Source: Chloroflexota bacterium
GTDB lineage: Bacteria; Chloroflexota; Chloroflexia; Chloroflexales; Roseiflexaceae
Length of the DNA stretch: 64,000 bases
Direction: 5' to 3'
Assembly: GCA_039178835.1 (NCBI GenBank)
Contig: JBCDFA010000001.1
Coordinates: 15,500-79,499 of the forward strand
How positions within the stretch are numbered: the stretch's first letter is position 1; each line of letters begins with the position of its first letter. The translations under genes were made by a program, and so were the position numbers. The notes under the pieces were generated by a model. That model worked only from the letters and a program-made list of their open reading frames with translations, ran no database searches and had not been told where the DNA came from. Positions 11,778-64,000 of the stretch are shown here, one piece after another.

Positions 11778-12575
11778 TCAATCACACATACGTTTCGCAT
11801 CGGCGACCTCGCCAAAGACCAGTAACTTATCGTTTGTCAAAATACGTGTGTCAGCAGATGGACTGACAAGCACTTCTTCGTTGCGCCAGATTGCCAGGAT
11901 GTTCAGGCCATGTTTCTGGCGTAGGTCTGCCTCTGCCAATGTTTTGCCCTGGAGATGCTCTGGCGCAATCACCTCGATAATCCCAATATTGGGATTGAGT
12001 TCCAAAAAATCCACTAGCCGAATGGATGAAAGTCGCCGTGCCAGCCGGACCCCGGCTTCGTGCTCAGGCAGAATGACTTCGTCCGCGCCGACCTGAATGA
12101 GAATGTCCCGTTGTGTTCGTGTACGCGCTTTGGCAATTACGCGTGGGACGCCCAATTTGCACAAAAGGACGGTTGCAAGCAGGTTGCTCTCAAAATCGGT
12201 ACCAATGCAAACCACCCCAATATCAAAGTGATCGATCCCAATTTCGCGCAGTGCATCAATATTTGTAGCGTCGATATTCACAACGTTGGGCAACTCAGAG
12301 GCAATGGCCTGTACTCGCTGATAGTCGCTATCGACGGTAAGGACGGTATGTCCCTGCTCAACAAGCGATTTAGCCAAACTGGTTCCAAATCGGCCTAAGC
12401 CAATAATAATAAATTGCCGTTTGTCGCGGTGCAAGAATGGGCGGCGGTTCCGACCGTGCGAGCGTAGATCTGGCAAGGAACGGGTATCTTGTGTGATAAG
12501 TTCTTTCTGGGTTTTTTGGGTTTGTTCTGTTGTATGATTGGTGAACTTCCACCATTGTCTAAATCGTTCTAACAT
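11778..12575 (-). CDS. trkA: K+ uptake system NAD-binding (RCK) subunit, TrkA/KtrA family, with an N-terminal extension of about 50 aa
   Basis: Rossmann motif IIIGLGRFG followed by an RCK_C-type C-terminal domain. It lies directly downstream of the TrkH/KtrB gene. Confidence 0.85.
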   Translation of the reverse strand: MLERFRQWWKFTNHTTEQTQKTQKELITQDTRSLPDLRSHGRNRRPFLHRDKRQFIIIGLGRFGTSLAKSLVEQGHTVLTVDSDYQRVQAIASELPNVVNIDATNIDALREIGIDHFDIGVVCIGTDFESNLLATVLLCKLGVPRVIAKARTRTQRDILIQVGADEVILPEHEAGVRLARRLSSIRLVDFLELNPNIGIIEVIAPEHLQGKTLAEADLRQKHGLNILAIWRNEEVLVSPSADTRILTNDKLLVFGEVADAKRMCD

Positions 12576-53652: not shown

Positions 53653-55560
53653 ATGAACTCAGTTATTGACACCGTCAAAGAACGTATAGATATTGTTGAT
53701 TTTATTGGAGAATACGTCCAGCTCCGCAAAGCTGGTCGCAACTACGTGGGTTTTTGCCCATTTCATCAGAATACACGCACTCCGGCCTTTACAGTTTTCT
53801 CTGAAACGCAAAGTTATCATTGTTTTGGATGCAAAGCATCTGGGACTGTCTTTGATTTCGTGATGCAAAGAGAAGGTCTGGAGTTTCGTGAAACGCTTGA
53901 AATGCTGGCACATCGTGTTGGTGTGGAATTGAAGCCCCGTACTGAAGCTGATGAGCAACGCCATCAGTTGCATGAACGTCTTTTGGAAATCAATGCCGCC
54001 GCAGCTAAGTTCTTTCAGCATACGTTGCTCAAATCTCCTCATAGCGTCGCCGCACGTGCGTATGTCGAACAGCGTGGATTCGATGCCGCAACTATCGAAG
54101 CGTTTCAACTTGGCTACTCTCGAGAAGATTGGTCTGCATTGCTGGCATATCTGACCAACCACAAAGGTTTTGAGCCAGAGGAAGTGGAAGCTGCTGGTTT
54201 GGCGATTAAACGTGATGGAAGTGGCTATTATGATCGATTTCGTGGCCGGCTCATGTTTCCTATTCGGAATGTCAAAGGTCAAGTCATTGCATTCGGAGGG
54301 CGTGCGCTTGGTGATGCGAATCCCAAGTATTTAAATTCTCCACAAACCCCTCTGTTTGACAAAAGTCACATTTTGTATGGCCTGGATCTTGCACGTTCAA
54401 CAATTCGTAACCAAGAGACGGCTGTGATCGTTGAAGGATATATAGACGTTATTGTGGCATACCAGTATGGGTTTCGCAATGTTGTTGCCCCATTAGGAAC
54501 AGCCCTGACAAGTGAGCATGCTGCTGTACTCAAAAAGCTGACCAAACGTATCTATCTTGCACTAGATGCAGATGCAGCGGGAATTAATGCGACTCTCAAA
54601 GGAATCGAAACACTTCGTCATCAATCAGAAGGCGATGTGATAACAGTTCCGACGCCACAGGGGGTGATGCAGTGGGGGGCTGATACCACAACAGAGATAC
54701 GGGTCATTGCCATGCCAGATGGGCAGGACCCTGATAATGTCATTCAGGCTGATCCAGAACAGTGGCGGGCTTTAGTAGAAAACGCTCAGCCGATTATGGA
54801 CTTTTACATCGCAGCATTGACCAGCGATCTCGACTTACGGAGTGCGCGTGGAAAAGCTGATGCGGTTGCACGTCTGGCGCCCCTTTTGGTACAAGTGTCG
54901 AATCCAATCGAGCAAGCACACTATATTCAGCGAGTTGCGCGTTTAGTAGAAGTAGAGGATCATGTTATTCGTGCTGCTTTGCCTGGCTCACAACGACCCA
55001 CACCAACACGCACTAAGGCCATCAAGCAGCCTGAGGGAGATACTCCGACAACGCGTGAGGATGCGCTCCTTGCCCTATTATTACGATATCCTTCAATGCG
55101 AACGGCGGTCCAGGAAAAGATGAAAAGTGATATATCATTGTTTCCGCTTGTAAGCGAAATGATAACGGGGATCTTGTTGGAATTGTTTGATCGGGCTGAT
55201 AATCGTGCTATTTGGCAAACGTGGATGGAGCAAGCACCAGACACCGATATTGAACACTGGATTACGACATTGGACGCAGTACTAGCTGAACAGGTTCGTC
55301 ATATTATGCACATTCATCTACCAGACTCACAGTCATATCGTTATATGAACGATGGTCTAGAATGTGCTACAATCCTACAATTACGTTTGGCACGTCGTTG
55401 GAAAGATCGTTGTAGTCAGGAAGAGGTGGAGGCACACAACGACGAAGAACGTTACGCATTGCTTGAGCGTATTATTCAGCTTAAGCAATATATCGACACT
55501 ATTAGTATACCTAAACGAAGTTCGACGTACGCTGATCTCCATGCACTTCGCACGGCCTGA
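53653..55560 (+). CDS. dnaG: DNA primase
   Basis: 635 aa. Zinc ribbon [14 protein letters not shown]...YHCFGC, the RNA-polymerase core and a TOPRIM segment ([15 protein letters not shown]). Confidence 0.95.
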
Positions 55561-55571
55561 GGGGGGCAATC

Positions 55572-57206
55572 ATGGCGAATCATAAAGATATTATGATTGA
55601 TAACAATCTACCAACCGATAATTCTCGCAACAGTGTTACCACAATAGGTGGGGATACCGACGAAAATGAATCGGGGCAAAATACCATCAACAATCTGCAA
55701 GATTTGATTGCTATTGGTCGTCAACGTGGTTATGTCATTGAGAGTGAAGTTTTACAATTGGTTCCTAATCCTGAGGCAGACCTTGATAAGTTGGAAAAGA
55801 TCCAGACGGCCTTGTCGCAAGCAGGTGTGTCAACTCGTGATGAGATTATTTCTGGTGGCTCGGATGTTGAGGTGTCTTTTGATGATGACGCTGACCTCGA
55901 AAATGGTCTGAATGTCGAAGGTATCAGTGTTAACGACACGGTTCGTATGTATCTTCGGGAGATAGGCCGTGTACCGTTGCTCAAGACAAGCCAAGAACGT
56001 GATCTGGCAGAGAAAATTGCGATTGGTGAGTACGTGAGTGCCATTAAGACACAAGAAGGTGCAGATTGGATTTTTACCAATGTACCACGTGTTGGTACCG
56101 CCATGTATGCACGTCTCGTGAAAAATTGGCCCATTGCCTATACGGTATTGCGTGAGTTGTGCACATTGCTCAATCAAGATGTGACACATCTTCCACCATC
56201 GCGTTTGCGCGAATTTCTCGATTTGCAAGATAAATTGTCATTTGAGAAGAAACCAACATTTGATGCACATCTGAATGCTGTCGCGCAAGAATATGAGTTA
56301 CCAGCCGAAAATATCGATCAGCTCTTGTCACAATCTATGATTATCTTTGAGCTATTACCGGCCAAATTGCAAGAAACGCTCAATCAGAGTACTGACTGGC
56401 CAGATGAGAGCACAGTTACTTCATTTTTTGTAGGTCAGGAAATGACTCTGTGGCGCAGTTGGAATGGTGCTATTGATGCAAGTAAAATTGCACGTGAGCA
56501 TCTCACGGAAGCCAACCTGCGCCTTGTCGTGAGTGTCGCGAAAAAGTACATCGGTCGTGGGCTGGGCTTGTTGGACTTGATCCAAGAGGGTAATGTCGGC
56601 CTTATTCGCGCTGTTGAAAAATTTGACTACCTGAAACGTTTCAAATTTAGTACTTATGCGACGTGGTGGATTCGTCAAGCTATTACACGGGCAATTGCTG
56701 ACCAAGCGCGTACTATTCGTATTCCTGTCCATATGGTTGAGACGATAAATCGTCTTTTGCGTGAGCAGCGTCGGTTACTGCAGGAATTGGGTCGTGACCC
56801 GTCGGACGAAGAACTTTCGAAGTCGCTTGATATGCCGGTAGAAAAAGTTCGCTCAATCCGTAAGACATCGCTTGAACCAGTGTCTTTGGAAACGCCTGTT
56901 GGTCAAGAAGAAGATAGCCAGTTAGGTGATTTTATCGAGGACTCGAAGGTGCTGGCTCCTTCCGATGCGGCAAGTCATCAGATGTTGCGCGAACAGGTTG
57001 AACAAGTTCTGAATCAGCTCACTGAGCGTGAACGTCGAGTATTACAGTTGCGTTTTGGTTTAGAGGATGGTCATAGTCGCACACTTGAAGAAGTAGGGAA
57101 AGAATTCGGTGTCACTCGTGAACGGATTCGCCAAATCGAAGTAAAAGCATTACGAAAACTACGCCATCCGCGTTTGGGTAAAAAGTTGCGGGATTATTTA
57201 GAGTAA
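55572..57206 (+). CDS. rpoD: Primary (housekeeping) RNA polymerase sigma factor
   Basis: 544 aa. Regions 1.2 through 4.2 are present, including [35 protein letters not shown] and [20 protein letters not shown]. Confidence 0.97.
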
Positions 57207-57250
57207 TACGTTATAGTCAAATGGGTTGGCATGCTTCCCTGTAGTACGGT

Positions 57251-57279
57251 TTGTCAAACGCAGCCAACTCGTCTATAAT
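57251..57279 (+). promoter_or_regulatory. Sigma-70-like promoter for the J-domain membrane protein gene
   Basis: TTGTCA (57251-57256), a 17-nt spacer, then TATAAT (57274-57279). It lies 30 nt upstream of the GTG start, which has a CAGGAG RBS. Confidence 0.5.
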
Positions 57280-57308
57280 GGCGCGGCCGTTGCAGACAGG
57301 AGTACCCC

Positions 57309-58673
57309 GTGCCGGACTTTGAAGATTTAGATTTTTACGAGTTGCTGAACGTACAGCGAACAGCATCGCTCGATGAAATACGGCGTGCATATCGCCGTGA
57401 GATATCAAAGTATCATCCTGATCGCTTTGTAAACGCTTCGTCTGATGAGCAAATGTATGCACAGCAGCGTAGTCAGCGTCTTACAGGTGCCTACAGCGTT
57501 TTAAGTGACCCTCGGGCGCGGAGTGCGTACAATCTTAATTTGGTTCCCGGTACTATTCCAAAACGTCAATCTGCATCAGGTCAAGCGCCAATACCACAGG
57601 CACAACCACGTGATTATCAGGCTGAATTATACGATCAAGCGCAGTCACATCTTACAGCTGGTCGAAAATTGCAAGCCATCGGGGTATTGCGGCAACTTCA
57701 ACAGATCAATCCTTTCTATCGTGACAGTGCTGAATTGTTGGCCAAACTGGAAGCACAAACACAACCACGTACCTCTGATGATAAACGTAAAACAATTCCC
57801 CCCTTCATGCTTTTTAGTGGTTTGGCTGGCATTGTCGTTGTGGTGATAGTTACGTGGTTTATCTTTCAGTCAGCAAATCCTTTTGGTATTGGTGTTTCCG
57901 AAGCGCGAATAGAACCTGTAGCTGCTGAGATGGCTACTGAGACCACACCAGAATTTTCAGATGCTACGGCTGTTCCTGCACCAACTGATGTACCTGTTCC
58001 ACCAACAGAGGTACCACCAACGGAAGTCCCAACCGAAATTCCACCAACAGAGGTACCACCAACGGAAGTCCCAACCGAAATTCCACCAACAGAGGTACCA
58101 CCAACGGAAGTTCCGCCTACCCAGCCACCTGAAGAGAGTGGTACAATATTAGTAGCAGATGGATTTGATAGCGTGGAGTGGGCCAGTCTTTCTGGTCGTG
58201 GTTGGCGTATCGGTTATCTTAACAGCCAATATCGTATTGCCGTTGATCCAGGCATTGGGAATATTTGGAGTTTTCGTACAAATGCGCCACGGGATGTAAG
58301 CATTGGTGTCGATGTACAAGTCATTAGTGGATCCGGGGGGGTACTCCTACGCTATCTTGATGATCAAAACTTTTTAGGTTTTACTATCAATCCTGCTGAA
58401 GCAAGCTATCAATTAGAACAACGTATTGCTGGGAACACGACCGTTCTTGCCGAAGGTGAGAGTTCAGCAATCATCAACGGAAGCGACGCTCAGAATCGTC
58501 TTGTGGTGCGGATGCAAGGATCACAGGTACAACTTATCGCAAATGGCCAGCCACTTGCCAGTGTTGAGATTCCGACTAATACAGGTAGTGCACGTTATGG
58601 AATGCTTGCCGTTTCAAGCGATGTGCCAGCAGAAGTCATCTTCGACAATCTTGAACTTCGAACTTTGGAGTAA
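57309..58673 (+). CDS. J-domain (DnaJ-like) membrane protein with a Pro/Thr/Glu repeat linker and a C-terminal beta-sandwich-like domain
   Basis: DFYELLNV...YRREISKYHPDR (HPD motif). One TM helix (FMLFSGLAGIVVVVIVTWFIF). A PPTEVP(T/P)E repeat linker, then a beta-rich C-terminal domain of about 175 aa. Confidence 0.85.
   Translation: MPDFEDLDFYELLNVQRTASLDEIRRAYRREISKYHPDRFVNASSDEQMYAQQRSQRLTGAYSVLSDPRARSAYNLNLVPGTIPKRQSASGQAPIPQAQPRDYQAELYDQAQSHLTAGRKLQAIGVLRQLQQINPFYRDSAELLAKLEAQTQPRTSDDKRKTIPPFMLFSGLAGIVVVVIVTWFIFQSANPFGIGVSEARIEPVAAEMATETTPEFSDATAVPAPTDVPVPPTEVPPTEVPTEIPPTEVPPTEVPTEIPPTEVPPTEVPPTQPPEESGTILVADGFDSVEWASLSGRGWRIGYLNSQYRIAVDPGIGNIWSFRTNAPRDVSIGVDVQVISGSGGVLLRYLDDQNFLGFTINPAEASYQLEQRIAGNTTVLAEGESSAIINGSDAQNRLVVRMQGSQVQLIANGQPLASVEIPTNTGSARYGMLAVSSDVPAEVIFDNLELRTLE
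57999..58111 (+). repeat. In-frame 42-bp tandem repeat (2.7 copies) encoding the PPTEVPPTEVPTEI linker
   Basis: CCACCAACAGAGGTACCACCAACGGAAGTCCCAACCGAAATT occurs at 57999-58040 and is repeated exactly at 58041-58082. A partial third copy runs to 58111. Confidence 0.95.
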
Positions 58674-58701
58674 ACATATTAGCCAATAGAAAAACAGTCC
58701 T

Positions 58702-59574
58702 ATGCGAAATGACATTATTGCCACTTTTTCCATCGTTGCGTACGATCCACAGAATGACGATTTTGGAGTAGCGGTTGCCTCAAAGTTTTTAGGGGTTGGT
58801 TCGGTTGTTCCCTGGGTGCGTTCAGATGCTGGTGCTATTGCGACACAGGCATTGGGGAATATGAGTTATGGTCCGCGAGGGTTAGATTTGATGGTGTCCG
58901 GTAAGTCTGCCGAAGAGACGCTCCAAACATTGCTTGCTGATGATGATCAGCGCGATCATCGACAAGTTGGCATTGTCGATAGTCAAGGACGTGCCGCGGC
59001 GTATACCGGTAAGAAATGTCTTGACTGGGCCGGGCATGTAACAGGAAATGGTTTTACGATACAGGGGAATATTCTGAGCAGTTCAACCGTCGTTGATAAC
59101 ATGGCCACTGCCTTCACCAGTACCCAGGGTGAGTTGGCTGAGCGCTTACTCGCAGCATTGCAAGTTGGTGACCAGACCGGTGGTGATCGACGTGGGCGAC
59201 AGTCTGCAGCTTTGTATGTTGCACGTCAGGGTGGCTCGTATGGCGGTTTCCTCGACCGGTACGTCGATCTGCGTGTGGATGATCACCAGAATCCAGTTGC
59301 CGAGCTTGTCCGGTTACTCCAATTACATCGCTTCTATCTGACTCGACCACGCCAAGAGGATCTTATGGCGATCAGTGAGCCAATTGCGCGGGAGCTACAA
59401 CAGTTGCTTCAAAAGGCTGGTTTCTACGATGGCCCCATTAGTGGAACACACGACGAAGCCACACAATCAGCCCTTGAACAGTATGGGGGGGTTGAGAATC
59501 TGGAAGAACGTTTGGTGAGCAAGACACACATTGATCCAGAAGTGCTAGATTTTATGCGAAGAAAACTTGCGTAA
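58702..59574 (+). CDS. DUF1028 (Ntn-hydrolase-like) protein with a C-terminal peptidoglycan-binding-like domain
   Basis: N-terminus TFSIVAYDPQNDDFGVAVASKFLGVGSVVPW is typical of DUF1028. The C-terminus LQQLLQKAGFYDGPISGTHDEATQSALEQY resembles PG_binding_1. Confidence 0.78.
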   Translation: MRNDIIATFSIVAYDPQNDDFGVAVASKFLGVGSVVPWVRSDAGAIATQALGNMSYGPRGLDLMVSGKSAEETLQTLLADDDQRDHRQVGIVDSQGRAAAYTGKKCLDWAGHVTGNGFTIQGNILSSSTVVDNMATAFTSTQGELAERLLAALQVGDQTGGDRRGRQSAALYVARQGGSYGGFLDRYVDLRVDDHQNPVAELVRLLQLHRFYLTRPRQEDLMAISEPIARELQQLLQKAGFYDGPISGTHDEATQSALEQYGGVENLEERLVSKTHIDPEVLDFMRRKLA

Positions 59575-59614
59575 TAAAGTATCTCGTATGTCTGTTTCTA
59601 GTGTGATATGATCA

Positions 59615-60724
59615 ATGTTTCATTTATCGACCGTTTCTCGTTTAGTATGCCCGCTGATCTGCCTACTTGCTGTTGGTTGTGCTTCGCTTTATACGCCGCA
59701 GCCTTCTGGTTCTTTACAACCAGTAGTAGTTGACGGTATACAATTGCGTGCTGGTAGTAAGATACTGGAGGTGCGAGGTACAAATTATGTTCACACCTTC
59801 AACGCTGATCTAAGCATGTGTCCAGAAATTCAATTTGGGGCGGATGGAAATTGTCCTTGGGATCTTGCGGCCATTGCCACGGATATGGAGCGGCTGCAAG
59901 GTCTGGGCATCAATACAGTTCGGATATTTCTGAACTATTATGCTTTCGGCGGCGCACGTGAAGTTGACCCCAATTACGACCTTTCGATTCCTCTCTCCCA
60001 TCTTGATGACTTCATCGATGTCGCGAACGAACATGGCATTTATGTTATGCCAGTACTTCTCGTCAAGTATCCACAGGATCGTTTTGGCCCAGAGCACTAT
60101 GAGACTGCTCTTGATCTCCATGTGCGTCCGGTTATCGAGTATCTGTCTGGCCGGGCGGGTGTCCTCGCCTGGGACGTGTTCAATGAGCCTGATCTCGGTG
60201 GCCCCATCGACCCGCGCTGTTGGGATTGGGACAATGGTGATTTTCCTCTGTGCTTCGAGTTGGCACAGGAGCGCTCACGTTTTGTAGTTGCCATATACGA
60301 CGAAGTTAAGCGCTTCGATCCTGAGCGCCTTGTAACGGTGAGTATGGGCTTTGGCAAGAACTATTTCAAACCCGATACAGCCGATATTCATCTGGCCGAG
60401 GTGGTTGATCTGTATTCCTACCACTATTATGACGACGACCCGTATGATAGTGGTCGTTACCGCGCTCATTGGTATTATGGTGAGGGTTTTCCTGCCGATC
60501 TTCATCGTGCGAATGCCGAACTCCATGCCCTTGATCTGGACAAGCCGATTCTTATTACGGAGATTGGCTTCCCAACTGGCCCTGATGCTACCCGTACCCT
60601 TGAAGAACTTCCCCAAGATCTGCAGACCGCTCTTGATGTTGCGCGTGATGATAGTACGGCTGGCATTATGGTGTGGCCCTTCCAGCCAGATCCTGATGAA
60701 TTGATCGGTGATCTCTTTCAGTAA
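59615..60724 (+). CDS. Glycoside hydrolase family 5-like lipoprotein
   Basis: Signal peptide plus lipobox (LLAVGC|A). Acid/base motif WDVFNEPD and nucleophile context ILITEIGFP. Confidence 0.78.
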   Translation: MFHLSTVSRLVCPLICLLAVGCASLYTPQPSGSLQPVVVDGIQLRAGSKILEVRGTNYVHTFNADLSMCPEIQFGADGNCPWDLAAIATDMERLQGLGINTVRIFLNYYAFGGAREVDPNYDLSIPLSHLDDFIDVANEHGIYVMPVLLVKYPQDRFGPEHYETALDLHVRPVIEYLSGRAGVLAWDVFNEPDLGGPIDPRCWDWDNGDFPLCFELAQERSRFVVAIYDEVKRFDPERLVTVSMGFGKNYFKPDTADIHLAEVVDLYSYHYYDDDPYDSGRYRAHWYYGEGFPADLHRANAELHALDLDKPILITEIGFPTGPDATRTLEELPQDLQTALDVARDDSTAGIMVWPFQPDPDELIGDLFQ

Positions 60725-60725
60725 G

Positions 60726-60755
60726 ATTGCCGATTAGCTTCCCATTGACGTATAA
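60726..60755 (+). promoter_or_regulatory. Candidate promoter of the CHAT operon
   Basis: TTGCCG (60726-60731), an 18-nt spacer, then TATAAT (60750-60755). A CAGGAG RBS lies 7 nt before the ATG at 60825. Confidence 0.35.
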
Positions 60756-60824
60756 TACCCACGACTTATATTCGCTCCACGCTGTGCTCGTTCGTTAGAA
60801 AGCCTCACAATCAGGAGCACGATT

Positions 60825-62243
60825 ATGTTCAACATCTATCACGACTTTGAAATTACTATTCAGCCGCCAAATGGTGACACCTTTCCTTATTTCATTCAGT
60901 CTCCTGGTGGTGAAGCACAGGGCATATTACGTCTGCCCACCAATACACCAACCTATCAGGAACTCGAACAACGATTGAGCCAACTCGACACAGACGAGGA
61001 CGCACTACATCAGCTGGGAACATTACTCTTTGACGCGCTGTTTGAGGGGAAGTCTGGTGAAGTATTCTCGATTAGTCGGGGGCGTTTGCAACCGAACGAA
61101 GGGTTGCGTTTTAAGTTAAGTATTGCAGCTGAAGAGAGTGTGGTAGCGTCTCTACCATGGGAGTTTATTGCCGATCCCAACCGTGGCCCATTGGCACTGC
61201 TTGATATGCCAATTGTGCGCTACTTGCCGTTAGCACTGCCAACATCGACATTGCGAACTGAGCTTCCATTGAGGGTGCTTTTGACCGGTGCCCATACGCC
61301 CCCGAATCCTGATGCAGTCACAAGCGAGCTTCGGTCTGTCAGAGAGTCGTTAGCAGCAGCTGTGCAGCGCGGGTTGGTCCAGCTTGAAGTCGAAGAGCAT
61401 CTGACCCCACGCAAATTACAGGCGTTGCTACGTCAGGACTTTCATGTCTGGCATTTTGTCGGCCATGGTGGTTTTGACCAGTCAGGTCGTAATGCACGTT
61501 TGTCGTTTGAGGACGATGATGGTGATGTGCAACGTGTGAGTGCTATGCAACTTGGCATTATGCTCAATCGGAGCAGTCTGCGACTGGTAGTGCTCAACGC
61601 GTGTGAGAGCGCCCGCCTCGCTGTTGAGCCGTTCCGTAGCCTCGCTCCAGCGCTGATCCGTGGTCAGGTGCCAGCCGTTGTTGCGATGCAGTTCTCGGTG
61701 CCGCAAGAATCGACGCGTGCTTTTGCAGGCGAGTTTTATTGTGCGCTTGCCGAGGGTTTTCCCATCGACGCGTGTGTGACAGAGGGCCGCAAAGCGATTA
61801 TGAACGAGATTGGATTGGGACGACCCGATTGGGGTATTCCGGTCGTGTACACCCGTGCGGCTGATGGCAAACTGTTTGAGACGCCAACCCCTGCGCCATC
61901 AGAGACGAATGCAACTGGTACTGGTGGTGTCAGTATCAATATCGAGAACAGCCAGCTTGATCACTCCAATGTAACTGTGAGTGAAGTGGGCAACATCGTC
62001 AAGGGCAACTCCACAAGTGACGCTGACGTAGATGTGGATAATGAGGAACTTGATGCGGAGATTGCAGCATTGAAAGACCAGGTGAGGTTAAAGAAACAGC
62101 GTCTGCGTAGACTAAGAAATCAGGAAGCTGTACATGGCATGAATACTGATCCATCGATCATAATAGAAATTGATCATTTGCAACAGGAAATAGCCGAGCT
62201 TGAAAAGCAAAGAAAGGCTCTTGAGAGCCAACGCGCCAGATAG
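60825..62243 (+). CDS. CHAT-domain (caspase-fold) protease with a C-terminal helical-hairpin/coiled-coil tail
   Basis: 472 aa. N-terminal segment with LPWEF. His/Cys dyad contexts are VWHFVGHGGF and LRLVVLNACESA. The last 60 aa or so are heptad-like (EIAALKDQVRLKKQRLRRL...EIAELEKQRKALE). Confidence 0.85.
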   Translation: MFNIYHDFEITIQPPNGDTFPYFIQSPGGEAQGILRLPTNTPTYQELEQRLSQLDTDEDALHQLGTLLFDALFEGKSGEVFSISRGRLQPNEGLRFKLSIAAEESVVASLPWEFIADPNRGPLALLDMPIVRYLPLALPTSTLRTELPLRVLLTGAHTPPNPDAVTSELRSVRESLAAAVQRGLVQLEVEEHLTPRKLQALLRQDFHVWHFVGHGGFDQSGRNARLSFEDDDGDVQRVSAMQLGIMLNRSSLRLVVLNACESARLAVEPFRSLAPALIRGQVPAVVAMQFSVPQESTRAFAGEFYCALAEGFPIDACVTEGRKAIMNEIGLGRPDWGIPVVYTRAADGKLFETPTPAPSETNATGTGGVSINIENSQLDHSNVTVSEVGNIVKGNSTSDADVDVDNEELDAEIAALKDQVRLKKQRLRRLRNQEAVHGMNTDPSIIIEIDHLQQEIAELEKQRKALESQRAR

Positions 62244-62262
62244 TATCCAGGGAGGAAGTCTT

Positions 62263-62463
62263 ATGTCACACGATGCTGAGCGTGCTGAAGAGATTGCAGC
62301 ATTAGAAAAACAGATAAGCTTAAAGAAGCGCCGCTTGCACGCCTTACAAAATCAAGCAGCCGTATACGGTATTAGTGCCGATCCGTCGATCTCGATTCAG
62401 ATTGAGGATCTAGAGCAGGAAATTAGACAACTCAGAGAAGAATTGCGTGATCTGAATGGCTGA
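62263..62463 (+). CDS. 66-aa helical protein paralogous to the C-terminal tail of the upstream CHAT protein
   Basis: ATG at 62263 has GGGAGGAAG 6 nt upstream. By eye, about 55% identity to CHAT residues ~412-462. It starts 19 nt after the CHAT stop. Confidence 0.65.
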   Translation: MSHDAERAEEIAALEKQISLKKRRLHALQNQAAVYGISADPSISIQIEDLEQEIRQLREELRDLNG

Positions 62464-62487
62464 GTTTACAAGACGAAGGAGTCGCTT

Positions 62488-63000
62488 ATGCTCATATCCA
62501 CTAGAAAATACCTGTTGCTATCAATTGTCTTGATGATTAGTCTGCGTATCGTTGCATGTTCGCCTGCACCCTCTGGCCAGTCTGAAAGTGCAGAGGAGCC
62601 GTTGGAAGGTGACTCGTCTGGCCTGGAACCAATCTCTGTTGAAGAGTCACGGGTAGTGGTCGATGTCTTTTCTGGTCGTACCAATCCGTCGTGGAGTCTT
62701 TCTGACCAGGAAACAGTAACGCTGACAACCATGCTGGAAGGGCTTGAAGAAGTGGAGGTGGCTCATTCGCCAGCCGGGCAGCTTGGGTTCCGCCAGTTTG
62801 TGGTGATGCTGGCAAGCCCAACGGCGGATGCTTCAGCAATGGTGTCTGTCTACGATACAACAGTCGAAGTGGACCATGGTGATGCGGTGAAGTACTACAC
62901 TGATACAGATGGTCAGGTTAGCCGCTGGCTCTTAGAGAGCAGCAAATCACATTTGGATGATGAGCTGTTTGCTGCCATCAAAGAAGCTGTCACACAATAA
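62488..63000 (+). CDS. Hypothetical secreted lipoprotein
   Basis: 170 aa. AAGGAG RBS. Signal peptide with lipobox-like LRIVAC|S. An acidic linker precedes a mixed alpha/beta domain of about 110 aa. I recognise no family. Confidence 0.6.
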   Translation: MLISTRKYLLLSIVLMISLRIVACSPAPSGQSESAEEPLEGDSSGLEPISVEESRVVVDVFSGRTNPSWSLSDQETVTLTTMLEGLEEVEVAHSPAGQLGFRQFVVMLASPTADASAMVSVYDTTVEVDHGDAVKYYTDTDGQVSRWLLESSKSHLDDELFAAIKEAVTQ

Positions 63001-63074
63001 CAATCACTTCAGTTCTACCGAGATGGCCAGATGAGATGTCGATTCGTTCACACTTCGCCTAGCCATCTGACATA

Positions 63075-64000
63075 TTACTGATCAGCGACATCAAACCCAA
63101 GTATCACCACAATATCTGCGGTACTCGTAACTCCATCGGGTGTGCCCTGTCGCACGTCGGCATTTAATGTATTTGCCAGCCGCCGACTCGTGCGTGGTTT
63201 ATTCCCGTTCACATCATAGATAATCGTTTGCTGCACATCTGTGTTCGGCGCGTCGGAGGCTGGAATGATCGTGAAGCCATCACTTTCGAGATCGCCAGAG
63301 ATCTGCCCGGCAAGGCCATTCACACCCGTGCCGTTCAGCACCTGCACTATTGCCGCCTCAGTTGCTTCACCCGGTGGTGTCAGCATGGCGTCCATCGCAG
63401 CCTGTTTGCCCGTTTCACTCCAGATAAGACTGAAGTTGCCATCTTCAACAACCTGTGGATCAAGCTCTGGTGAGAAGCGTACCTGACCAATATCATCAGG
63501 ATTCAGTCCACTCCCGACCCATGTGAGCGCCAATAACACATCGACTCTGCCCAATGGCATGGTTGTCGTAACGGCACCGTCCAGTCCCTCACGGAGATTC
63601 GGTAGCGTCATCACCTGTCCCACAGGACCACGTTGCTGAAATTCTGTCACAATAGCACGAATAACCTGTTGCTGGCGGGCGTTGCGATCAAAGTCACTAT
63701 CGCCGTGACGGGTACGAGCATACACAAGCGCAGTCTGGCCATCCATAACCTGCGGTCCAGGTTGGAACTCGACCTGTCTTGTGCTAAAATCTGGGTTGGG
63801 ATACGCATCGTCGATGATGAGTTCTGGTACATCGATAGTCACACCACCAAGCGCATCAATAATCTGAGCAAATCCGTCAAAGTTGACTTGCATCACATAA
63901 TCGATCCGCTGACCGCGTGTGGGCCAGCCGAGGAACTCCTCAATGGTCTGGGCTGTAAGCGCCATACCACCCTGTTGCGGTGTTGTGCCAGCGCCATAGA
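63075..64000 (-). CDS. LytR-CpsA-Psr (LCP) family cell-envelope phosphotransferase with a LytR_C domain; 5' end lies beyond the window
   Basis: LCP-core segments NFDGFAQIIDALGGVTIDV and MDGQTALVYARTRHGDSDFDRNARQQQV. The reading frame stays open to position 64000. Confidence 0.85.
   Translation of the reverse strand, partial: YGAGTTPQQGGMALTAQTIEEFLGWPTRGQRIDYVMQVNFDGFAQIIDALGGVTIDVPELIIDDAYPNPDFSTRQVEFQPGPQVMDGQTALVYARTRHGDSDFDRNARQQQVIRAIVTEFQQRGPVGQVMTLPNLREGLDGAVTTTMPLGRVDVLLALTWVGSGLNPDDIGQVRFSPELDPQVVEDGNFSLIWSETGKQAAMDAMLTPPGEATEAAIVQVLNGTGVNGLAGQISGDLESDGFTIIPASDAPNTDVQQTIIYDVNGNKPRTSRRLANTLNADVRQGTPDGVTSTADIVVILGFDVADQ

Follow-up and report, generated by a model that had tools for sequence, protein, structure and literature searches.

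Effector-associated domains (EADs) are small domains of the NTP-dependent conflict systems of multicellular prokaryotes; through their homotypic contacts, effectors are coupled to core NTPases, and the genes of EAD-bearing effectors often lie at a distance from that of the sensor (PMC7159879; PMC8195603). An all-in-one and a split pattern have been described both for EADs and for amyloid signalling motifs (PMC7159879; PMC8195603; bioRxiv 10.1101/2020.01.06.895854), and in the BASS elements, which are NLR-associated amyloid signalling motifs of filamentous bacteria, a short sequence is common to the C-terminus of an effector and the N-terminus of an NLR, CHAT being among the effectors so equipped (Dyrka et al., bioRxiv 10.1101/2020.01.06.895854). 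Here we describe a CHAT protease gene located within 64,000 nucleotides of a Chloroflexota genome (contig JBCDFA010000001.1; this whole stretch is hereafter termed the window), together with the two genes that follow it, one encoding a protein of 66 amino acids (aa) and the other a predicted lipoprotein. The C-terminal tail of the CHAT protein is a helical module that recurs on thousands of other proteins, among them STAND NTPases, and the 66-aa gene is a free-standing copy of this tail. On balance, and with moderate confidence, we favour the view that the CHAT protein is an effector protease of an EAD/STAND conflict network whose sensor is probably encoded elsewhere, and that the 66-aa gene arose recently as a paralogue of the adaptor part alone. 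The elements central to this view are listed below by window coordinates.

60825 to 62243, forward strand: CHAT gene, an open reading frame (ORF) of 472 aa
61464 to 61466, forward strand: codon of the catalytic His214 (VWHFVGHGG), invariant in 25 orthologues
61602 to 61604, forward strand: codon of the catalytic Cys260 (VLNACES), invariant in 25 orthologues
62058 to 62222, forward strand: tail module copy 1 (CHAT residues 412-466), helix-turn-helix
62263 to 62463, forward strand: 66-aa gene, an ORF 19 nucleotides (nt) past the CHAT stop codon

The CHAT Protease

The product of the first gene belongs to the CHAT family of clan CD caspase-fold proteins by profile, catalytic dyad and fold. Firstly, residues 93-327 match the Pfam CHAT family (PF12770) with 88.1 bits against a cut-off of 24 (E 9e-25). 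Secondly, the His/Cys dyad is intact. Thirdly, the best Foldseek matches of an AlphaFold2 (AF2) model of the protein (predicted local distance difference test, pLDDT, of 70) are the SAVED-CHAT filament 8TL0 (E 1.6e-9), Csx29, DdvA, separase and caspases 1, 3, 4 and 9, with the entries 7ZOQ and 8EEY matched at E ~1e-5; the flexible linker and tail keep the TM-scores of these matches low, at 0.3. The protein is predicted to be an active caspase-fold protease and, having neither signal peptide nor membrane anchor, is predicted to be cytoplasmic. It is composed of an N-terminal beta/helical domain (residues 1-90), the CHAT core (residues ~93-355), a low-confidence linker rich in G, S and N (residues 356-404) and a two-helix tail (residues 405-472), the helices of which span residues 401-440 and 443-471 in the AF2 model.

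The linker carries a conserved G/S/N-rich motif of ~30 aa, GxSVxIGSGNxLxxxSxIxISxVGNT (positions 61917-62018, CHAT residues ~365-398), which is beta-prone, is modelled by AF2 with low confidence and resembles amyloid signalling motifs. A role for this motif as an amyloid-type coupling element was considered and rejected: among 274 proteins its hidden Markov model matches CHAT orthologues only, and no STAND N-termini.

A Widespread Tail Module

The tail is marked by the signature RRL-x3-Q-x-Q-x-A-x-YG-x3-DP-x-I-x-I-EIEDL-x2-EI-x2-L. When a profile built from 16 tail sequences was run in an exhaustive HMMER search against 1.84 billion cluster representatives, 3,168 representatives were matched at E<=1e-3 and 428 at E<=1e-10; an earlier word-indexed search with a 5-sequence tail profile had returned just two close orthologues of the small protein. 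The sequences listed from the exhaustive search share the specific signature Q-x-A-x-YG-x3-(D/P)P-x-I-x-IEIED, and are therefore not generic coiled coils.

The position of the module within its host proteins varies. Among the 147 best matches it is N-terminal in 66, C-terminal in 39 and internal in 8, while 11 carry it at both ends or are spanned by it and a further 23 are standalone proteins of <=95 aa, 20 of which begin with Met; more than one copy is present in 42 of the 147. The Pfam partners found in the 86 longer matches are EAD7 (11), TIR_2 (8), CHAT (6), AAA_16 (6), NACHT (3), nSTAND1 (3) and EAD2 (3), and further partners of the module include Roc, TCAD2, TCAD9, FGE-sulfatase, WD40 and TPR. 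Representative architectures are given here with the corresponding protein.

P0183: module-EAD7-NACHT-FGE-sulfatase
P0174: module-AAA_16-TPR
P0132: module-nSTAND
P0130: three modules-EAD7-nSTAND1

An architecture of four modules followed by CHAT was also seen, nSTAND2 is likewise among the STAND NTPases with an N-terminal module, and the module occurs on PT-HINT pretoxin proteins as well. Standalone versions of 60-75 aa recur in P0139, P0141, P0178, P0193 and P0223. The proteins P0128, P0133, P0134 and P0137 include tandem arrays, with five copies after a PT-HINT pretoxin domain, three copies alone, and nine stretches in a protein of 1837 aa; in P0137, two module copies precede what by eye is probably a TIR domain. 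Two of the STAND NTPases with N-terminal modules (L087, 5679-11084; L089, 1607-9347) lie in conflict-type surroundings, one with JAB and ThiF/E1-like genes and the other adjoining an AAA_35-bDLD1 gene and a Peptidase_C14 caspase.

The module is thus fused both to effector domains (CHAT, TIR, PT-HINT) and to the N-termini of core NTPases, the two contexts expected under the EAD principle. Despite this behaviour it lies outside the catalogued EADs (EAD1-12, bDLDs): neither the tail nor the small protein matched any Pfam EAD family at E<=1, where only generic coiled-coil noise was returned, and no NCBIfam or PADLOC family matched either of them. Judging from these domain contexts, the module is probably a portable, non-catalytic docking or oligomerisation element.

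Birth of the 66-aa Gene

Aligned with CHAT residues 412-466, the 66-aa protein shows 53% identity (E 1e-15). These two adjacent copies are the only ones in the 64-kb window, where no third copy of the tail was found, and the flanks retrieved from relatives likewise contain no others. The gene is present in the window, in the loci L001 and L005/L006 and in P0007, and all three genes of the set are retained in the TARA relative (L005). It is absent from the closest named relatives, Chloroflexi bacterium AL-W (L002; GCA_013122415.1) and AL-N1 (L014; WYDT01), which keep the CHAT and lipoprotein genes, the latter placed ~24-27 nt directly after the former. An assembly artefact can be discounted, since independent assemblies contain the 66-aa gene: an NCBI metagenome-assembled genome, two Logan contigs, a TARA scaffold and P0007.

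Several observations bear on the direction of the change. All outgroup tails end in L-x-x-LGG, as do, in similar form, the small protein (RDLNG) and the tail of AL-W (CDLSA); the CHAT protein of the window terminates in a derived extension, KQRKALESQRAR. The outgroup-like end therefore resides on the small protein, and the duplication is the derived state. In a DNA alignment, the AL-W tail corresponds to the 5' part of copy 1 of the window followed by the 3' part of copy 2, and the spacer and ribosome-binding site that precede the lipoprotein gene are common to AL-W, where they follow the CHAT stop codon, and to the window, where they follow copy 2. The simplest history would be a tandem duplication, within the sub-lineage of the window and the TARA relative, of a segment of ~220 bp holding the tail, stop codon, spacer, lipoprotein ribosome-binding site and ATG. 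By this account the Shine-Dalgarno sequence of the 66-aa gene, GGGAGGAAG, may derive from the copied lipoprotein ribosome-binding site, and the new ORF may have inherited ready-made translation signals; the stretch concerned is short and the resemblance suggestive only. A DNA repeat finder failed to detect the duplication because the copies are too diverged in DNA, and it becomes visible in protein and guided DNA alignments. The 66-aa gene is not an ancestral partner of the protease but was born in the sub-lineage of the window and the TARA relative.

Since its birth the gene has been maintained under strong purifying selection. Ratios of nonsynonymous to synonymous substitution rates (dN/dS), computed for the window against the TARA relative, are as follows.

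66-aa gene: 0.061 (dS 0.87)
CHAT core: 0.074
Attached tail: 0.18
Lipoprotein gene: 0.27

The 66-aa gene is under as much constraint as the catalytic core, and the attached tail is relaxed relative to the free copy and diverges faster. Identity between the attached tail and the free copy amounts to 75% in L005 (5986-7624) and to 53% in the window (60825-62463), and the free copies of the window and the TARA relative are 88% identical to one another, which indicates either asymmetric divergence or gene conversion in one lineage. A second ORF of 66 aa, found 5' of the CHAT gene in L010 (7257-7457), is not a homologue of the tail.

A Proposed Mechanism

As the tail is common to STAND N-termini and to EAD7, TIR and CHAT proteins, it would place the CHAT gene in an EAD-coupled conflict network and make its product the effector-plus-adaptor half of a split NLR-like pathway. 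In such a pathway, a sensor encoded in trans, elsewhere in the genome, and bearing the same module would oligomerise once activated. The activated sensor would then recruit and cluster the CHAT protein by means of tail-tail contacts, and the resulting proximity would turn the protease on, as it does with CARD-caspases. The outcome would be that of an NLR-like conflict pathway, namely cell suicide or immunity. The 66-aa protein, for its part, could have a regulatory role, competing for or bridging tail-mediated assembly in the manner of CARD-only and pyrin-only proteins (COPs/POPs).

A number of points weigh against this view. Neither the 64-kb window nor 1.38 Mb of retrieved loci yielded a partner with the module, and the two STAND loci inspected (L087, L089) have no second module gene adjoining. 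The module could act solely as a self-oligomerising coiled coil; it is also frequently found in the same protein as EAD7, and may be an accessory to a true adaptor rather than the adaptor itself. Additionally, the position of the CHAT gene beside housekeeping and envelope genes is fixed across the family, which is atypical for conflict systems given to fast turnover, and the gap of 24 nt before the lipoprotein gene, with no terminator, makes a functional link between lipoprotein and protease formally possible.

A bolder version of the conflict-network view is offered tentatively, as a proposal that we consider rather less probable. It holds that the tail would be a new, widespread homotypic adaptor (>3,000 representatives), the functional equivalent of EAD and Death-like domains; that the CHAT protein would serve, in Roseiflexaceae-level Chloroflexia, as a conserved, fixed-site 'hub caspase' which many diversifying STAND sensors recruit by way of this adaptor; and that the 66-aa protein would be a bacterial counterpart of the CARD-only and pyrin-only decoys, seen shortly after a duplication that brought along the ribosome-binding site and start codon of the neighbouring gene, and tuning the threshold at which the death protease is activated.

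Genomic Context and Alternative Explanations

At least 626 homologues of the CHAT protein were found, dozens of which, ~440-480 aa long, align at ~50% identity over 98-99% of the query, including the tail. The orthologues are hosted by Roseiflexaceae, Kouleothrix and other Chloroflexia. Every long orthologue contig examined shows the gene order of the window, dGTPase-dnaG-rpoD-DnaJ-DUF1028/PG_binding-GH5-CHAT; the order dnaG-rpoD-DnaJ-DUF1028-GH5-CHAT was recorded in L008/L015, L010/L011, L012/L013, L018, L033, L034, L039, L041 and at the place of P0043, and a tblastn survey of 72 genome loci returned the same order in L014, L015, L018, L033, L034, L039 and L041 and a rearranged one in L019. 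The CHAT gene is a vertically inherited gene with a fixed position downstream of dnaG-rpoD in Roseiflexaceae-level Chloroflexia, which is unusual among such effectors.

This stability is the chief attraction of the alternative that survives best, in which the protein is a housekeeping or developmental, HetF-like protease acting in division, filament or envelope processes of filamentous Chloroflexia, and its tail is a self-oligomerising coiled coil and nothing more. In the cyanobacterium Anabaena, the CHAT protein HetF is associated with the divisome (PMC8406250). An apparently single-copy orthologue fixed beside dnaG-rpoD at Roseiflexaceae-level divergence, a strongly constrained CHAT core (dN/dS as given above), surrounding envelope genes (DUF1028/PG_binding, the GH5 lipoprotein, LCP), a weak similarity to the NCBIfam HetF family (2e-14) and the want of an adjoining module-bearing partner at the inspected STAND genes all accord with such a role. 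The HetF similarity, however, amounts to 52.9 bits against a cut-off of 1200 (NF045509) and involves the CHAT core alone, so that identity with HetF was rejected, and the protein has no membrane anchor. Moreover, the other hosts of the module are overwhelmingly conflict proteins (STAND NTPases, TIR, EAD7/EAD2, TCADs and PT-HINT toxins), and the closest paralogues of the core are directly fused to NB-ARC or AAA_16 (P0051, P0062); in a further core paralogue, P0013, EAD7 lies between core and tail. For these reasons we consider a housekeeping role unlikely, though it is the alternative to be taken most seriously.

A less probable alternative follows from the sequence-only reading of this DNA, which had taken the three genes for a self-contained unit of a kind not recognised as a described system. 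They would then form a novel, self-contained CHAT system without external sensor, the small protein and the lipoprotein being dedicated partners (substrate, inhibitor or sensor) of the protease. The remaining elements of the locus are as follows.

60727 to 60772, forward strand: overlapping pair of promoter-like, sigma-70-like sites in the 100-nt spacer between the GH5 and CHAT genes
62250 to 62258, forward strand: Shine-Dalgarno sequence GGGAGGAAG of the 66-aa gene, read from the sequence
62476 to 62481, forward strand: Shine-Dalgarno sequence AAGGAG of the lipoprotein gene, read from the sequence
62488 to 63000, forward strand: lipoprotein gene, an ORF of 170 aa, 24 nt past the 66-aa gene
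63075 to 63965, reverse strand: convergent LCP (LytR-CpsA-Psr) gene, which bounds the unit (Pfam LytR_cpsA_psr 4e-24, LytR_C 1e-14)
53653 to 60724, forward strand: upstream synteny block of dnaG, rpoD, DnaJ-domain, DUF1028/PG_binding and GH5-like lipoprotein genes, from Pfam and comparison of loci

Much of the descriptive part of that reading was borne out. The three ORFs, their spacing of 19 and 24 nt, the Shine-Dalgarno sequences, the lipobox, the site TTGCCG-18-TATAAT and the convergent LCP gene were all found in the sequence as described; so were the intact dyad of the CHAT protease, the kinship of the small gene with the protease tail, the lipoprotein character of the third gene and, in a Pfam scan of the neighbours, the lack of any STAND, TPR, gasdermin, TIR or CRISPR/cas gene adjoining the CHAT gene. 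The start of the set at 60726 coincides with a promoter-like site, while the CHAT ORF itself begins at 60825. That site, TTGCCG-18-TATAAT (60727-60756), and a second one, TTGACG-16-TATATT (60745-60772), each match 10 of 12 consensus positions; they are consensus matches only, and the region contains 8 such sites in total against 3.4 expected.

The tight co-directional spacing, a ribosome-binding site for each gene, the promoter-like site at the 5' end, the convergent gene at the 3' end, the failure to find any terminator-like site between the three genes and the retention of the trio in the TARA relative would all suit a self-contained system. The wider comparison does not. Outside a few nearly identical genomes, the CHAT gene alone is conserved: the lipoprotein gene is confined to five very close relatives and the small gene to a subset of these, and no co-occurrence of their homologues with CHAT genes was found elsewhere, an outcome that the sequence-only reading had itself named as one that would refute it. 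The tail and the upstream gene order persist in the CHAT orthologues of ~50% identity, and yet neither a lipoprotein homologue nor a separate small gene was found 3' of them; the convergent LCP gene is the sole recurrent downstream neighbour of distant orthologues. What has been conserved is thus the CHAT gene together with the genes 5' of it, and not the trio. The lipoprotein is, furthermore, predicted to be exported whereas the CHAT protein has no signal peptide, and it is the fastest evolving of the gene products compared. A novel, self-contained trio is accordingly not supported, and we judge it improbable. As to the missing sensor partner, the earlier observation holds in that none is adjacent, and the tail module offers an explanation, as it would place the CHAT gene in a described, EAD-coupled network.

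The lipoprotein itself begins with MLISTRKYLLLSIVLMISLRIVAC, followed by S, and by sequence pattern (lipobox [LVI][ASTVI][GAS]C) its signal peptide ends in IVAC, likewise followed by S. The Cys of this lipobox, Cys24 (62557-62559), is invariant in 5 homologues, which are the only ones found among 5.8 billion proteins and are 68-100% identical. No Pfam, NCBIfam or PADLOC family matched the protein, an AF2 model built from the alignment of five sequences is unusable (pLDDT 34.5), and its dN/dS is the highest of those compared. It is probably co-transcribed with the CHAT gene and is best seen as a clade-specific orphan that lies between CHAT and LCP in envelope-themed surroundings (GH5 lipoprotein, DUF1028/PG_binding, LCP), and not as a partner of the cytoplasmic CHAT protease.

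Least probable of all is that the 66-aa ORF is a non-functional, unexpressed by-product of duplication or a repeat assembly artefact: although it is very short, derives from the neighbouring gene, is absent from sister genomes and has no family annotation, it is found in independent assemblies, retains its ATG intact behind a strong ribosome-binding site, shows a dN/dS below that of the attached tail, and has standalone counterparts of 60-75 aa elsewhere.

A few further observations concern the flanks. The GH5-like protein encoded immediately 5' of the CHAT gene (59615-60724) has a lipobox-like N-terminus, LLAVGC, and predicted lipoprotein genes therefore lie on both sides of the CHAT gene. 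The DnaJ-domain protein (57309-58673) has a hydrophobic segment followed by a tandem repeat rich in proline (PTEVPPTEVPTEI...), with a globular domain at the C-terminus, and in one orthologue its C-terminal part weakly matches 3keto-disac_hyd. The true start of the LCP gene lies beyond the end of the window, LCP orthologues being ~475 aa long. In L015 (11454-12330; Candidatus Ribeiella danica), the LCP gene 3' of the CHAT orthologue matches in two pieces that meet at 11794/11795, which suggests a frameshift or pseudogene. An Rfam scan of positions 57000-64000 gave no match. In a tblastn search of phages and plasmids, neither the small protein nor a consensus of the module was matched, a result to which the BLAST low-complexity filter may have contributed.

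Significance

The locus is of interest on three counts: a widespread docking module new to the libraries searched, the birth of an adaptor-only gene, and a positionally conserved caspase-like effector in filamentous Chloroflexia. Under the conflict-network view favoured here, what appeared to be a CHAT operon without sensor would be an effector wired into an NLR-like network by a helical module absent from Pfam, NCBIfam and PADLOC. A profile of the module would annotate thousands of proteins and would help to match split effectors to STAND sensors in filamentous bacteria. The 66-aa gene, in turn, offers a clean case of gene birth, in that a tandem duplication yielded a gene for the adaptor alone on which strong purifying selection has since acted, and it makes testable whether bacteria regulate caspase-like effectors by decoy adaptors, as animals do with COPs/POPs. 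The fixed site beside dnaG-rpoD raises the further question of whether a filamentous lineage has taken a death effector into its core physiology.

Comparison with Known Systems

In structural terms, the nearest relatives of the CHAT protein are SAVED-CHAT (8TL0) and TPR-CHAT/Csx29 of the type III-E Craspase, with which it shares the caspase-like CHAT fold and the dyad and which provide its best structural matches; a PADLOC SAVED_CHAT match (1.9e-7) is limited to the CHAT part, residues 186-357. All of them may plausibly be activated through induced oligomerisation. Unlike these proteins, the one described here has a C-terminal coiled-coil hairpin as its regulatory appendage. Identity with Craspase or SAVED-CHAT was rejected, as no TPR or SAVED domain was matched and no CRISPR-Cas or cyclic-oligonucleotide gene was present among the neighbours scanned. 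A gasdermin-protease pair was rejected likewise, the neighbours being GH5, the tail copy, the orphan lipoprotein and LCP, with no gasdermin match.

The EACC1-caspase system resembles this locus in pairing a caspase-superfamily protease with a small protein in a multicellular bacterium (PMC7159879). EACC1, however, is encoded by a 5' gene and has a single transmembrane segment, whereas the small gene described here lies 3' and its product is soluble and a copy of the tail. The candidate was set aside because the upstream gene matches Cellulase/GH5 only and no EACC1 was found in the proteins scanned.

With the BASS elements the tail has in common the logic of a shared element and the coexistence of all-in-one and split versions. 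In contrast to it, however, BASS are beta-forming motifs of ~25 aa that usually occur in adjacent gene pairs; the tail is alpha-helical in the AF2 model and has no adjoining NLR.

For the 66-aa gene, the closest parallel is found in animals. The COPs and POPs of mammalian inflammasomes are encoded by adaptor-only minigenes that were duplicated from a neighbouring caspase-pathway gene and retained by selection. The 66-aa gene is likewise an adaptor-only duplicate kept by selection, and its product would be expected to modulate homotypic assembly. The likeness is one of analogy only: the bacterial module is a helical hairpin and the death fold has six helices, so that any similarity is convergent.

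It is the EAD-coupled effectors that the locus resembles most broadly. As in those systems, a small, non-catalytic helical module is carried by a caspase-like effector and recurs at STAND N-termini and on TIR proteins; the module co-occurs with EAD7, EAD2, TCAD2/9, nSTAND1/2 and FGE-sulfatase; and the effector gene, whose host belongs to a filamentous phylum, the Chloroflexota, lies apart from any core system. Two differences set it apart. The module is a two-helix hairpin, often in tandem arrays, and not a Pfam EAD, and the effector is encoded not by a variable island gene but by a positionally conserved gene of the core genome.

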